Virus record (IMG/VR): IMGVR_UViG_2778261346_000016
Location: 1-9,852 of that record
Strand: one strand, 5' to 3'
Length of the DNA stretch: 9,852 nucleotides
Origin: a virus
Lineage: Duplodnaviria; Heunggongvirae; Uroviricota; Caudoviricetes
Shown here: positions 7,281-9,852 of the stretch, in pieces
How positions within the stretch are numbered: the stretch's first letter is position 1
Layout of the letters: each line of letters begins with the position of its first letter
The notes under the pieces: generated by a model
The model's database searches: none
What the model saw: the letters and a program-made list of their open reading frames with translations, nothing else
What the model was told of the DNA's origin: nothing
Program-made: the position numbers and the translations under genes

Positions 7281-7451
7281 TCAGAATGGACACGGCCCAA
7301 GGAAATAACGCTGATTTAATACTTCAGTCTTTGCCGCATTTAAAAATACGCGAACACCTTCACGATCTCCCTTCTGGCGATACATTAACGCCTGCTGCGT
7401 GTACATGCGTCTCTGTAACTTGCTCTCCTTCACTGTGGTTGCAAGTGACAT
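7281..7451 (-). CDS. small ORF, 56 aa (sits where P22 has arf)
   Basis: Hand-translated: MSLATTVKESKLQRRMYTQQALMYRQKGDREGVRVFLNAAKTEVLNQRYFLGPCPF. ATG 7451..7449 with AAGGAG SD 7 nt upstream; stop is 10 nt before the erf start. Overlaps the alternative ORF 7360..7530 in another frame. Confidence 0.35.
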   Translation of the reverse strand: MSLATTVKESKLQRRMYTQQALMYRQKGDREGVRVFLNAAKTEVLNQRYFLGPCPF

Positions 7452-7530
7452 GAATATCTCCTTCGTTACCGATTAAATCTTTCATCTGACGAATGAATTC
7501 TTCGTCTGACCAGTTATCTGTAAAACTCAT
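7360..7530 (-). CDS. alternative small acidic ORF, 56 aa
   Basis: Hand-translated: MSFTDNWSDEEFIRQMKDLIGNEGDIHVTCNHSEGEQVTETHVHAAGVNVSPEGRS. ATG 7530..7528 forms an ATGA overlap with the Kil-like stop, but the SD is weak. Overlaps 7281..7451, so at most one of the two is likely real. Confidence 0.25.
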   Translation of the reverse strand: MSFTDNWSDEEFIRQMKDLIGNEGDIHVTCNHSEGEQVTETHVHAAGVNVSPEGRS

Positions 7531-7679
7531 TTCCTGCGATACAACGGAAGGTTGATAGCTGATTTCATCGCTTTATTTGCTTCAAGCCACATTTTTGAAT
7601 CACCAATAAATCTGGCTATTACTGCTTTGTTCTGTGCAGCACGAAGCATCTGGTGATTGATGGCTATTTCATTGCGCAT
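7527..7679 (-). CDS. kil: Kil-like small protein, 50 aa
   Basis: Hand-translated: MRNEIAINHQMLRAAQNKAVIARFIGDSKMWLEANKAMKSAINLPLYRRK. ATG 7679..7677 with GGAGG SD 4 nt upstream. The core IARFIGDSKMWLEA resembles my recollection of lambda Kil (IATFIGDEKMFREA). Position between cIII-like and the recombination genes matches lambda/P22 synteny. Confidence 0.45.
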   Translation of the reverse strand: MRNEIAINHQMLRAAQNKAVIARFIGDSKMWLEANKAMKSAINLPLYRRK

Positions 7680-7798
7680 AACGCCTCCAGTTGTTTCTTT
7701 GCTGCTCTGATTAATTGTTTAACTCGGCGTGATAATTCAGATTCGTGCGGGTAGAAAGCGGACATGACGCCGCTACCCGCGAGCTGAAAGTGCATCAT
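7664..7798 (-). CDS. cIII: cIII-like protein (FtsH inhibitor family), 44 aa
   Basis: Track ORF 7664..7903 trimmed to ATG-ATG 7798..7793, with AAGGAG SD 7 nt upstream; the longer version would run through a terminator. PHESELSRRVKQLIRAAKKQLEAL resembles the lambda cIII amphipathic core PSESLLERITRKLRDGWKRL (recalled). Confidence 0.5.
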   Translation of the reverse strand: MMHFQLAGSGVMSAFYPHESELSRRVKQLIRAAKKQLEALCAMK

Positions 7799-7861
7799 GG
7801 GTAACTCCTTATATTTGATTGCATAACGAAAACGCCTCGAGTGAAGCGTTATTGGTATGCA

Positions 7862-7888
7862 TATAAAAAAGCCCTCACACTGGAGGGC
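7862..7888 (-). terminator. intrinsic terminator for leftward transcription (tL-like)
   Basis: GCCCTC / GAGGGC 6-bp GC stem (7871..7876 and 7883..7888) with a 6-nt loop, followed on the minus strand by TTTTTTAT (7870..7863). Confidence 0.55.
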
Positions 7889-7950
7889 AAAGAAGATTTC
7901 CAATAATCAGAACAAGTCGGCTCCTGTTTAGTTACGAGCGACATTGCTCC

Positions 7951-7978
7951 GTGTATTCACTCGTTGGAATGAATACAC
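7951..7978. repeat. perfect 9-bp inverted repeat GTGTATTCA / TGAATACAC with 10-bp spacer
   Basis: Read directly at 7951..7959 and 7970..7978. No adjacent U-tract on either strand, so it is not a classical terminator. Confidence 0.5.
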
Positions 7979-8007
7979 AGTGCAGTGTTTATTCTGTTGT
8001 TTATGCC

Positions 8008-8032
8008 AAAAATAAAGGCCGACTATGCGGCC
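8008..8032 (-). terminator. intrinsic terminator immediately after the 60-aa moron gene
   Basis: GGCCG / CGGCC 5-bp stem (8017..8021 and 8028..8032) with a 6-nt loop, followed on the minus strand by TTTATTTTT (8016..8008). The stop codon of the 8033..8215 gene abuts the stem. Confidence 0.45.
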
Positions 8033-8215
8033 TCAGAATGGTTTATATCCATTTTTAAAGGCGAAATCGTATGCCTCATCCTTAGTGCTGAAGTATTCAT
8101 AATCAGCAAATCCATCACGATAAAACTTGCAGCACCAATGATGCGGAATGCCATCCTCAGGACCATAGTCTTGATGGAACACATCCTCGACGATGATATT
8201 TTCATCTTTTCCCAT
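8033..8215 (-). CDS. small acidic aromatic-rich protein, 60 aa (moron; function unknown)
   Basis: ATG 8215..8213 with AGGTGA SD about 5 nt upstream; TGA 8035..8033 followed directly by a terminator. The locally AT-rich segment (about 7985..8280) contrasts with its flanks. About 13 D/E against 6 K/R. Confidence 0.5.
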   Translation of the reverse strand: MGKDENIIVEDVFHQDYGPEDGIPHHWCCKFYRDGFADYEYFSTKDEAYDFAFKNGYKPF

Positions 8216-8277
8216 ATATCACCTAAAATAAGTGGTTTGCTGCCAAAACAATGAACCATCCGGAAATTCCAGATAGT

Positions 8278-8505
8278 TCATAATTCACTCTTCAATACTT
8301 CCAACTTACTAATCGCCGATAGATATCCGCGCTGATAGGGAATCATCATTCCTTCGAGCTTGCCACTTCTTAACTCCTCCCTGAGCAATTGTATTGCTTG
8401 ATCAATAACCTCTGACTTAGCGTCCTTTATGGCTTGCTTGCGGGGCTTTGCTTTCTGCTTTGGCAGATTTCTCAAGCATGATGGAATGTATGTCTGATTC
8501 ACCAC
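8278..8505 (-). CDS. possible small protein, 75 aa, GTG-initiated (low confidence)
   Basis: ORF beginning at GTG 8505..8503 immediately after the N-like TAA. No ATG start or clear SD; it may be real (coupled to N) or spurious. Confidence 0.25.
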   Translation of the reverse strand: MVNQTYIPSCLRNLPKQKAKPRKQAIKDAKSEVIDQAIQLLREELRSGKLEGMMIPYQRGYLSAISKLEVLKSEL

Positions 8506-8778
8506 TTACCTCGCCGTCAGTTGTTTTGATTTCCGGTATCCTGCCGCGTAAATAGCTACGTTTGGCAGGCAAACACTTCCACTGCATTCATCTGCCTTCT
8601 TGCAGCGAAGGCTTCCGAGTGATGCTGCTTTGTCTGCTCTGACGCAACCAGAGAGCTTTCGCGCAATTTTTCGCGCCAGTCGCTGCTCTTGCATTGCCTG
8701 TTCACGTTGAGCCTGTCTGCGTGCTCTGCGGCGATTTCTGGCGTTATCGTCAGCCAGATATGTAATGACTACTGTCAT
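8506..8778 (-). CDS. N: N-like transcription antiterminator with N-terminal arginine-rich motif, 90 aa
   Basis: ATG 8778..8776 with GGAGGT SD 6 nt upstream. N-terminal NARNRRRARRQAQREQ resembles the lambda N arginine-rich motif (TRRRERRAEKQAQW, recalled). First gene downstream of the nutL-like site and operator/promoter region on the same strand. Confidence 0.55.
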   Translation of the reverse strand: MTVVITYLADDNARNRRRARRQAQREQAMQEQRLARKIARKLSGCVRADKAASLGSLRCKKADECSGSVCLPNVAIYAAGYRKSKQLTAR

Positions 8779-9223
8779 GTTGACCTCCGATGATTGACTT
8801 TGGTGATTGGATGGCCGGTGCTGAATTCCGGCTTACTGGTTAGAGCGCCCGCACTACCAGTGACGCTGTCTTGAGGCGCAGATTGGTTACTGCTTGCCAT
8901 GAGCGCTGTTTATACATTGGTCGAGCATCAGCCTGCTCATTCATCCAATCCCAAAGCCAACTACTCTTTGACTCACACTCTCGCAGTGAGCGCGCTCATG
9001 CCCTTGAGTCTCTGCCGCTTCATCGCCGCTGATAACCGGTGCGCGTCTGGCATTCGCGCTGCTTTACCGGAGCTACTTTTAATATATTGACCCTAACCCG
9101 ATGCTAAGCAGGCTCGCTCAATGGCGACTCAGGGCAGCATCATTACTGCTGCATTTCCTTTCGGCTGCGGTCTAACCGCGTTAGTGCACCATTACGGCAC
9201 CTCCTGTTTGGTTAAACTCAGTT

Positions 9224-9263
9224 CCCGCATTTCGGCGGGACAATCCCATCAATGTTAAAGAGC
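9224..9263 (-). promoter_or_regulatory. nutL-like site: boxA plus boxB hairpin
   Basis: Minus strand reads GCTCTTTAACA (reverse complement of 9253..9263), close to the recalled boxA consensus (rrn boxA TGCTCTTTAACAA; lambda CGCTCTTA). A 13-nt spacer is followed by hairpin CCCGC-CGAAAT-GCGGG (9239..9224). Confidence 0.45.
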
Positions 9264-9304
9264 CTGCCAATCTGTTCCGTTTGGCTTCCAGCGTCCTGCT
9301 GATG

Positions 9305-9400
9305 GCTAAAGAATACTGTAGGTATTTTATTGTGTAAATACCCAAGGTATTTATTTTTGATGAAATAATGATAAACAAATGAATACAAAGGATATTTATT
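9305..9400 (-). promoter_or_regulatory. oL/pL-like region: three 17-bp operator palindromes overlapping a leftward promoter
   Basis: Perfect 7-3-7 palindrome AAATACC-CAA-GGTATTT at 9336..9352; imperfect copies GAATACT-GTA-GGTATTT at 9311..9327 and GAATACA-AAG-GATATTT at 9381..9397. Minus-strand candidate -35 TTTACA (9338..9333), 17-nt spacer, -10 TATTCT (9315..9310), about 40 nt upstream of boxA. Confidence 0.45.
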
Positions 9401-9483
9401 TGTTTCGGTGTCTGCTTGTTCAGTGCTTTTTATGCGGGATATGTGAAGTGGATCCCGATAGCTATTGCTGCCGGGATTATGGG

Positions 9484-9852
9484 TTAGTCAGCGAAGGTTA
9501 AGACGAGAATTACCTTAATGATGTCTGCTACAACAGACACGGCCATAGATAAACCAAAGACGATCCAAGCCATAGAGATGTCTTCACTACCATCGTATAG
9601 GGTTCCGTAATCACTGGTGTAAGGCGTAAATGTCGCGCCTTGATACAATAGGTATAAGCTTGATCCATAGAGGATAAATGCAGATATCCCTTGTATTGCT
9701 ATGATCACTAGAATCATGAAACGAGCTGATCTATGCGCCCAAGCCTGGCTTATTTTTTCTGATAGAGATTTCGCAATAAAAGCATGCGCTAAGCCGTAAA
9801 TTGTTGAGATTGCCAACATCCCCAAAAAGCTTGCTATAGCGGTTCCAACCAT
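9484..9852 (-). CDS. hydrophobic membrane protein, possibly 5'-truncated by the window edge (occupies the lambda rexB-like position)
   Basis: ORF runs to the window end with no upstream stop visible, so the ATG at 9852 may be internal. Multiple long hydrophobic stretches. Sits on the far side of the operator region from the N-like gene. Confidence 0.45.
   Translation of the reverse strand: MVGTAIASFLGMLAISTIYGLAHAFIAKSLSEKISQAWAHRSARFMILVIIAIQGISAFILYGSSLYLLYQGATFTPYTSDYGTLYDGSEDISMAWIVFGLSMAVSVVADIIKVILVLTFAD

Follow-up and report, generated by a model that had tools for sequence, protein, structure and literature searches.

The stretch of viral DNA analyzed here, referred to as the window, is 9,852 nucleotides long (positions 1 to 9,852 of the IMG/VR record IMGVR_UViG_2778261346_000016, assigned to the Caudoviricetes). 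Its minus strand carries a gene for an N antiterminator, preceded by a promoter, operators and a nut site and followed by terminator-like sites and a recombination gene. These features are listed below in window coordinates.

6665–7300, minus strand: Erf single-strand annealing protein, probable start MSKEFY at 7270 (Pfam ERF)
7349–8281, minus strand: five terminator-like sites, each a hairpin followed by U residues, at 8281–8251, 8034–8015, 7888–7871, 7850–7831 and 7364–7349 (scan)
8506–8778, minus strand: N antiterminator CDS of the HK620 type (ORF list; Pfam PF25694; PHROG 271)
8509–8580, minus strand: C-terminal segment of N, residues 67–90, CLPNVAIYAAGYRKSKQLTAR, of the H-19B/HK97/P22 type; RNA-polymerase-contacting by analogy
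8581–8670, minus strand: central segment of N, residues 37–66, near-identical to phage 21 N; NusA-binding by analogy
8671–8748, minus strand: arginine-rich motif (ARM) region of N, residues 11–36, predicted boxB-binding module (alignment of N proteins)
8784–8788, minus strand: Shine-Dalgarno sequence GGAGG of N, read from the sequence and kept in all leader variants
8793–8961, minus strand: long leader hairpin (boxC region) directly 5' of the Shine-Dalgarno sequence, basal stem GGCUUUGGG...CCAAAGUC
8968–9207, minus strand: RNA module X, about 240 nt, an insertion relative to HK620 and mEpX2 (bounds from an nhmmer profile)
9223–9240, minus strand: nutL boxB, UCCCGC-CGAAAU-GCGGGA, loop at 9229–9234 (fold; identical to HK620 nutL)
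9255–9263, minus strand: nutL boxA, GCTCTTTAA, rrn/P22/21-type consensus
9310–9338, minus strand: pL promoter, TTTACA-17-TATTCT (promoter scan; identical to the pL annotated in HK620)
9311–9374, minus strand: operators OL1 (9311–9327), OL2 (9336–9352, AAATACCTTGGGTATTT) and OL3 (9358–9374), transferred from the HK620 annotation through a gap-free identical alignment

The N ORF begins at the ATG 8778–8776 and specifies 90 residues in 90 codons (MTVVITYLADDNARNRRRARRQAQREQAMQEQRLARKIARKLSGCVRADKAASLGSLRCKKADECSGSVCLPNVAIYAAGYRKSKQLTAR). Residues 11–90 match the Pfam profile PF25694 (N_peptide) with an E value of 2.6e-15 and a score of 57.2 bits, the curated cutoff being 27.9, and the protein matches PHROG 271, "anti-termination protein N-like," with an E value of 2e-33. 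An earlier note on this DNA, made from the letters alone, had called the product N-like, and these matches agree with it: the homology search that it proposed places the protein in the N family and in no unrelated one. An unannotated ORF of the Stx2c-converting phage Stx2_5044 encodes a protein that is 100% identical. Next come N of mEp213 (96.7% identity) and the annotated N of coliphage HK620 (95.6%), which has the same length and differs at four amino acids. We confirmed 494 relatives in IMG/VR, the best 80 of which are 94–98% identical. A sequence search of the PDB with the N protein gave no match at E ≤ 10, and no NCBIfam model fits N or the neighboring proteins. A 41-aa ORF that overlaps the start of N (8775–8900) is without a family match and lies inside the leader hairpin; it was therefore treated as noncoding. 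No tRNA or tmRNA was found by scanning.

Upstream of the gene, the window is base-for-base identical from about position 9400 to 9221 to the stretch of HK620 in which OL1–3, pL and nutL are annotated in GenBank. HK620 thus has the same pL, operators and boxA, with the boxB CCCGC-CGAAAT-GCGGG in its nutL. Transcription from pL would start near 9303. In the nutL of this transcript, the boxB hairpin starts 14 nt after boxA (GCUCUUUAA) and folds into a 6-bp stem with a 6-nt loop (−10.5 kcal/mol, z = −3.3; none of 200 shuffled sequences is as stable). The hairpin with a CGAAAT loop mentioned in the earlier note is therefore present and stable, but it lies outside 8506–8778, with 445 nt between boxB and the ATG of N. 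Its 6-nt loop does depart from the lambda pentaloop, as had been claimed. The partner site, nutR, falls outside the window and is known from relatives only. In Stx2_5044, which is 99.9% identical over 8200–9852, the pattern boxA-N(5–30)-boxB occurs exactly twice, with zero occurrences expected by chance: one copy corresponds to the nutL coordinates and the other lies on the opposite strand, 8 nt past the cro stop codon, and is nutR. The annotated nutR of HK620 likewise has the same boxB as its nutL.

N is the first gene of the pL operon, no family-supported ORF being found between pL and N. The ORFs that follow N match cIII, Kil, an Arf-like protein, Erf and an SSB-like protein; this downstream gene set is one respect in which the window differs from HK620. 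The P22-type Erf context noticed earlier is confirmed by a Pfam ERF match (E = 2.4e-44) and by identities of 75% to the Erf of P22 and 99% to that of H-19B. Scanning 7300–9852 for terminators gave seven sites, against 2.0 ± 1.3 expected; five of the seven are on the minus strand between N and erf, all of these being matches to a consensus only. HK620 annotates tL1 and tL2A–C in the equivalent region, and the five minus-strand sites of the window are likely substrates of antitermination.

The locus therefore displays every feature by which an N system is recognized at the sequence level: a profile match over the threshold, an N-terminal ARM, the operon position, nut sites, and terminators. The N/nut pair is a common, named type, already annotated in HK620 (GenBank AF335538 / NC_002730), whose neighboring genes also resemble those of the window, with a membrane gene like hkaS and a cI that shares its immunity type. 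The earlier note had missed that HK620 carries an annotation of this exact pair. Taken as a whole, the gene is very probably the N transcription antiterminator of a lambdoid prophage of the HK620 immunity type, from a Stx2c-converting phage or a near-identical one, with its own nut pair and a likely specificity class of its own.

The protein itself is a composite. Residues 1–10 form a P22 gp24-like N-terminal tip, MTV(V)ITY. The ARM of residues 11–36 is, in the alignment, confined to the HK620 group. The central segment is 92.9% identical to N of imm21 over residues 37–64 (tblastn), and the C-terminal segment is 92–100% identical to the C-termini of N proteins from Stx phages, H-19B and HK97; over residues 47–90, identity to P22 gp24 is 59%. 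With P22 gp24 and H-19B N, the protein shares the C-terminal pattern CLPxVAxYAAGxRKSKQxTAR as well as the Erf context. H-19B N differs in its length of 127 aa, which includes a long extra central region. Phage 21 N differs in its C-terminus, which is lambda-like (GRQKIK..PLI), whereas that of the window N is P22/H-19B-like, and in its ARM (SRYKARRAELIAERR vs. NRRRARRQAQREQ in the window). The likeness to phage 21 extends to the nucleic acid: the two pL leaders agree base for base from the start of transcription to the first bases of the spacer past boxA. Beyond these bases, the CGAAAU hairpin takes the place of the phage 21 boxB, UCUCAAC-CUAACC-GUUGAGA. The near-identity to phage 21 of the central third of N and of the 5' pL leader, boxA included, is an addition to the earlier note. 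The lambdoid mosaicism which that note had proposed is borne out in the P22-like tip, an ARM of its own, the phage 21 center, and the H-19B/P22 C-terminus, with a P22/H-19B-type Erf nearby. As far as the alignments go, this N protein is textbook lambdoid mosaicism at sub-gene resolution. Under the three-region model of N (PMC3526286), the central segment would be the NusA-interacting part, and the C-terminal segment would by the same analogy contact RNA polymerase.

The comparison with lambda is less straightforward. The two systems share the three-part logic, the position of N in the pL operon, the ARM core A-x-x-RRR-x-RR and a GNRA-type loop core in boxB. The lambda motif on which the earlier note relied is correct (RRRERRAEKQAQ, residues 6–17 of lambda N). 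In the window, the ARM comprises residues 12–27 (NARNRRRARRQAQREQ), with seven Arg within 11 residues (14–24), and its core NRRRARRQAQREQ corresponds to residues 15–27 (nt 8736–8698, minus strand). Over 16 residues centered on the Arg core, it has 7/16 identities with lambda (MDAQTRRRERRAEKQAQWKAAN), 6/16 with H-19B, and 5/16 each with P22 and phage 21. The alignment to lambda, P22, and phage 21 proposed in the note thus makes lambda nominally the closest, by a trivial margin. The Trp of the lambda N ARM stacks on the lambda boxB loop. At the position of this residue, Trp18, the HK620-type ARM has Ala, so that it includes no loop-stacking Trp. Beyond the ARM, lambda N has a different C-terminus and an overall identity of 23% in the alignment. 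What survives of the proposed "lambda-type" ARM is therefore the core motif and a nominal first rank; from these alignments, the label overstates a shallow resemblance.

The nut sites point the same way. Both nutL and nutR carry UCCCGC-CGAAAU-GCGGGA and not the pentaloop hairpin GCCCU-GAAAA/GAAGA-AGGGC of lambda; in the latter, the pentaloop sits on a U-A closing pair, compared with the 6-nt C-GAAA-U of the window. The boxA elements also differ (CGCUCUUA in lambda vs. the rrn/P22-type boxA of the window). In stem and loop context, the window boxB is closer to P22 nutR than to lambda. P22 nutR reads CCGC-C-GACAA-C-GCGG and the window CCGC-C-GAAA-U-GCGG, a near-identical stem with a mismatched loop-closing position in both; P22 and H-19B both have the GACAA pentaloop, unlike the window.

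We surveyed ARM and boxB in close relatives and in loci recovered through the X RNA described below. The ARM core is identical in 80 of 81 HK620-type sequences, the remaining one having NARNHRR. Of 80 related IMG/VR loci, 77 have exactly this boxB ahead of N, always with a boxA upstream, and 75 have a second, inverted boxB (nutR) 1.3–2.3 kb further on. Of the two sites, nutR has the longer stem; the loop is invariant. Two of the three boxB exceptions are loci too short to reach the site, and the third is mEp213. This phage has a second HK620-type N gene, and the boxB in front of it has a broken stem.

The same ARM and boxB are found on three N backbones: P22-type in mEpX2, where the middle and C-terminus of the protein are P22-type, phage-21-type in the loci L188 and L206, whose N proteins are phage 21 throughout except for the ARM, and H-19B-type in the window. 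In a more distant relative, L107 (N 46% identical), 11/16 residues of the ARM core are kept (DNARNRRRAKR..EREQ), and a CGAAAU loop is carried on an altered stem. By these comparisons, ARM and boxB are exchanged as a single cassette among phage-21-, P22-, and H-19B-type N backbones. Since both are almost invariant in the sample, their coupling represents co-inheritance plus one diverged lineage and not true covariation.

The window combines the three elements that mark the HK620-type N/nut group: the ARM NARNRRRARRQAQREQ, a CGAAAU loop on a CCGC/GCGG stem, and an rrn-type boxA. Because the ARM and the CGAAAU loop are co-inherited across three backbones and in L107, the case for a separate specificity class is strengthened, and the HK620-type ARM/boxB likely forms a class of its own, not interchangeable with lambda, P22, or phage 21. 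Other natural N/boxB pairs include some with GAGA, AAUA, or AUAG loops, each with a quite different ARM. A "new" N/boxB specificity is commonplace among lambdoid phages because loop types are many and each goes with a different ARM, a point also made for phage epsilon34 (PMC2629481). A literature search found no experimental work on the HK620-type N/boxB pair.

The most serious alternative is that the ARM is functionally lambda-type, recognizing a generic GNRA-like fold, cross-reacting with the lambda boxB and belonging to the lambda N specificity group. The ARM core and a downstream Gln are common to the two proteins, lambda leads the ranking of ARM identities, and the loop holds GAAA, the GNRA core that is mimicked by the GAAAA of lambda. 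The rank is worth little, however, with H-19B one identity behind and P22 and phage 21 two; an equivalent of Trp18 is lacking, neither nut site has the lambda pentaloop or the lambda stem, and the CGAAAU loop is strictly kept with this ARM even in the 46%-identical relative. We consider a lambda-type specificity unlikely. The lambda N peptide has been reported to tolerate GNRA tetraloops, and some cross-recognition between lambda and the HK620-type pair may occur.

As predicted from its sequence, the C-GAAA-U loop probably presents a true GNRA tetraloop on a C·U mismatch, with no extruded base. Such a tetraloop would dispense with a stacking Trp, which fits an ARM that has none. The HK620-type ARM on a genuine GAAA tetraloop and C·U mismatch would then be a fourth, structurally uncharacterized mode of ARM-boxB recognition. 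If its specificity is confirmed, the pair could be used as an additional orthogonal peptide-RNA pair.

The HK620-type N would operate along the lines of the lambda, P22, and H-19B paradigms. Its ARM would fold on the loop of boxB in the nascent RNA from pL and pR, the phage-21-like central segment would recruit NusA, NusB/NusE would bind the rrn-type boxA, and the H-19B/P22-like C-terminus would contact RNA polymerase. The polymerase modified in this way would read through the leftward terminators, toward cIII, kil, arf, erf, and ssb, and through the rightward ones.

Between boxB and the N gene, the window departs from most of its relatives. The leader ends in a long hairpin with a predicted minimum free energy of −75.2 kcal/mol (z = −4.4; 0/200 shuffles as stable). 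Its basal stem, GGCUUUGGG...CCAAAG, matches the leader hairpins of lambda and HK620, and the lambda leader likewise has a structured hairpin adjoining the Shine-Dalgarno sequence. We regard the hairpin, by analogy, as the putative counterpart of the structured, RNase III-sensitive leader of lambda N, and cleavage by RNase III would be expected here too. Binding of lambda N at nutL leads to repression of N translation across a leader that is highly structured (PMC5725501). Because in the window, too, a long hairpin directly precedes the Shine-Dalgarno sequence, translation of N is probably autoregulated and modulated by RNase III as in lambda. An insertion of 250 nt between boxB and the leader hairpin could nevertheless alter or abolish a lambda-style autoregulation. 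Measured between a point 4 nt inside boxB and the end of the ATG, the leader has 449 nt in the window; HK620 and most relatives have 112 nt, and about a quarter of the relatives have 199–566 nt, with interchangeable modules. The 449-nt form of the window combines a 251-nt module, X, placed directly behind boxB, with a replaced hairpin interior. HK620 has no such 251-nt structured RNA after boxB, and its hairpin interior differs. Across the loci compared, the N leader is a hot spot for insertions.

This elongated leader, of 525 nt vs. about 190 nt in HK620 and with two inserted or replaced modules, might be taken as the mark of an inactive remnant in a decaying prophage, in which N expression is blocked by insertions, and the broken-stem boxB before the second N gene of mEp213 offers a precedent. 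This is very unlikely for the window: the ORF is intact and 94–100% identical across many loci, none of pL, boxA, boxB, the basal hairpin, and the Shine-Dalgarno sequence is disrupted, and an identical leader is present in records described as complete for the Stx2c-converting phages Stx2_5044 and Stx2_EH1904 and in other contigs. More improbable still is an exclusion factor like Nun of HK022, which would bind the nut RNA of another phage and arrest transcription without antitermination in its own genome; the gene has the map position of HK022 nun (PMC4124055) and an N-terminal ARM, but the hairpin co-segregating with this ARM is present in both nutL and nutR of the phage itself, the protein has the center and C-terminus of functional N proteins (phage 21, H-19B, and P22), it scores above the curated N-family cutoff, and terminators that need read-through lie downstream. 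A functional N antiterminator of the HK620 type remains the best explanation of the locus.

Module X lies between the boxB of nutL and the N leader hairpin. In the window, it begins with a Shine-Dalgarno sequence (9205–9200) and a mini-ORF, ATG GTG CAC TAA (9192–9181), which are followed by about 11 helices. The mini-ORF is present in at least 66 of 83 copies as an ATG (in a few, GTG), 0–2 further codons and a stop that ends 0–9 nt before the first helix; 57 of these have a recognizable Shine-Dalgarno sequence, and the encoded peptides include MKH*, MVH*, MK*, and M*. The case for a structure comes from covariation, the thermodynamic stability being uninformative (z = −0.44). In 83 sequences less than 93% identical, 88.8% of the cells of the 11-helix model are paired, as against 28–39% with slid partners. 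For covariation, the model scores 0.285 vs. at most 0.063 for the slid partners; none of 500 shuffles reaches 0.285, and the compensatory changes fall mostly in helices P3, P7, P7a, and P11.

No Rfam 15 family matched X in cmscan searches of the whole window, of the leader alone, and of 24 related loci. One match to the Rfam skipping-rope family in the window was discarded, as it scored 15.5 bits for a gathering threshold of 36.7 and none was seen in 14 other loci searched at an E-value threshold. A literature search found no experimental work on the X RNA.

Phages of Escherichia, Hafnia, Klebsiella, Edwardsiella, and Providencia carry homologs of X in intergenic DNA that is unannotated, the Klebsiella copies including that of the linear-plasmid prophage phiKO2. 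An 18-mer that is invariant in X occurs in at least 119 IMG/VR contigs; together with other related loci, these contigs yielded 106 distinct copies. Among 5,426 complete E. coli genomes, 118 gave matches to X, and in 78 of these the match spans at least 80% of the module; E. coli O145:H28 RM12581 carries a 100% match. Where these annotations list a feature at X, it is a "hypothetical protein" and never an ncRNA. A scan of species-representative genomes with the 18-mer gave 120 matches, of which 13 are X RNA; nine of the 13 genomes were identified, all Enterobacterales. A wide phylogenetic spread was rejected, the other matches being coding coincidences such as the HSLKGMSA motif of CheA.

The genomic context of X is notable. 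Of the 80 HK620-type N loci, 8 contain it, and none of the lambda, P22, phage 21, H-19B, HK620, mEpX2, and phi80 loci examined does. X occurs 47–52 nt past boxA, directly behind boxB, in at least five nutL types, and about 170–215 nt past the boxA of a phi80-type nutL. It is also found 89–123 nt past the stop codon of Q antiterminators belonging to three unrelated Pfam families; in this context, a strong intrinsic terminator runs directly into the Shine-Dalgarno sequence of X. A location after spanin genes is less frequent. X is usually followed by a long CUUUGGG...CCAAAG hairpin.

Since the downstream genes differ, X is not a gene-specific switch; more likely, it serves lytic, antiterminated transcripts as an accessory RNA. 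Tentatively, and with somewhat less than even confidence, we propose that X is an undescribed family of structured phage RNAs with a translated mini-ORF of one to three codons, placed as the first RNA past the N checkpoint (immediately behind boxB, with at least six boxB types) or the Q checkpoint (immediately behind the Q-dependent terminator, with three unrelated Q families) and made in the lytic state only. Such an RNA would be produced only in lytic, antiterminated transcripts, and cleavage at the long hairpin beside it might set it free. Its target could be its own transcript, for example through ribosome loading, protection from Rho, or modulation of N translation, or it could work in trans.

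Within this locus, the unannotated leader RNA is more unusual than the N/nut pair. If our reading of it is true, X represents an unrecognized accessory layer in the lambdoid regulatory cascade, inserted after N- and Q-type antitermination sites. Its relevance would extend to Shiga-toxin phages, in which the timing of early and late transcription controls the release of the toxin.

The stretch from the boxB hairpin of nutL to the N start codon is a modular insertion hot spot in HK620-type phages, its length varying from 112 to 566 nt in the regions upstream of N at loci L011-L090. In the window, this leader is occupied by the following features:

8968-9207, minus strand: X, a conserved structured RNA of ~240 nt, inserted between boxB of nutL and the leader hairpin of N
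9192-9181, minus strand: mini-ORF ATG GTG CAC TAA, the window copy of the one carried by X
8793-8961, minus strand: long, very stable leader hairpin (z = -4.4)
8775-8900, minus strand: 41-aa ORF inside the leader hairpin, whose terminal ATGA overlaps the N start

The structure of X is backed by strong covariation, with 88.8% paired cells versus 28-39% for the slid controls. Rfam contains no family corresponding to it. Its 5' end consists of a conserved SD followed by a mini-ORF of one to three codons. In other phages, X lies immediately behind nut sites of several types or immediately behind the terminator located 3' of Q antiterminators belonging to three unrelated Q families. Two other modules were identified in the leaders of L011-L090. 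The first, of ~200 nt, harbors a start-stop mini-ORF (AGGAGG-N5-ATG TGA), and the second codes for a hydrophobic peptide of ~40 aa (MLDIITNPILGGLVTTFAIGFGF...).

The leader hairpin shares its basal stem with the N leaders of lambda and HK620 but differs from them in its interior. IME10, Gally, and 611R6 carry the same interior at 100% identity, and versions 90-98% identical to it occur in phages of Klebsiella and Enterobacter. The 41-aa ORF within the hairpin had no match in the family search and is probably non-coding.

Phage mEp213 (L008) carries two N genes, together with a remnant of boxB:

1144-1416 and 2569-2901: the two N genes
near 1780-1800: boxB remnant with a broken stem, CCCTCC-GAAAT-GCGGG

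The N gene adjoining the leftward early promoter pL is HK244-like; the one further downstream is of the HK620 type and is preceded on its 5' side by boxB and X. No boxA accompanies the boxB remnant. The cassette formed by boxB, X, the hairpin, and N appears to have been transplanted whole into mEp213. Upstream of N in phage 21 (L005, imm21), the 5' end of the pL transcript, boxA, and the first bases of the spacer are identical to window positions 9241-9303. This identity ends inside the spacer, just 5' of boxB, which puts a recombination joint between the two boxes.

Other genes were noted elsewhere in the window:

9484-9852, minus strand, continuing past the window edge: multi-pass membrane-like protein, homologue of HK620 hkaS (PHROG 6534, function unknown)
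6282-6665, minus strand: SSB-like protein (PHROG 44, E 1.3e-27)
2991-3743, 3740-4402, and 5332-5811, minus strand: three ORFs, adjacent to or near one another, with common motifs

The hkaS homologue lies between cI and pL, a position equivalent to that held by rexB in lambda, and by this analogy it may provide a prophage-expressed exclusion function. The SSB-like gene is directly downstream of erf; its product ends in DDSIPF, which resembles the acidic tip at the C-terminus of bacterial SSB. ORFs 2991-3743 and 3740-4402 share an N-terminal YQxLREAAEKA motif, and TPATDAFL(S/A)E is common to ORFs 3740-4402 and 5332-5811. These shared motifs suggest that the far-left early region holds a small family of paralogues made up of the three ORFs.

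The nutL regions of L007, L107, L128, L144, L165, and L172 yielded several more natural N/boxB pairs whose loops are short. Their boxB hairpins include GUAUGCC-GAGA-GGUGUAC, CUCCUG-AAUA-CAGGAG, and UCUCCCGG-AUAG-UCUGGGAGA, and the arginine-rich motif of N differs for each of these three types. The GAGA, AAUA, and AUAG pairs constitute a ready-made candidate set of orthogonal peptide-RNA pairs.
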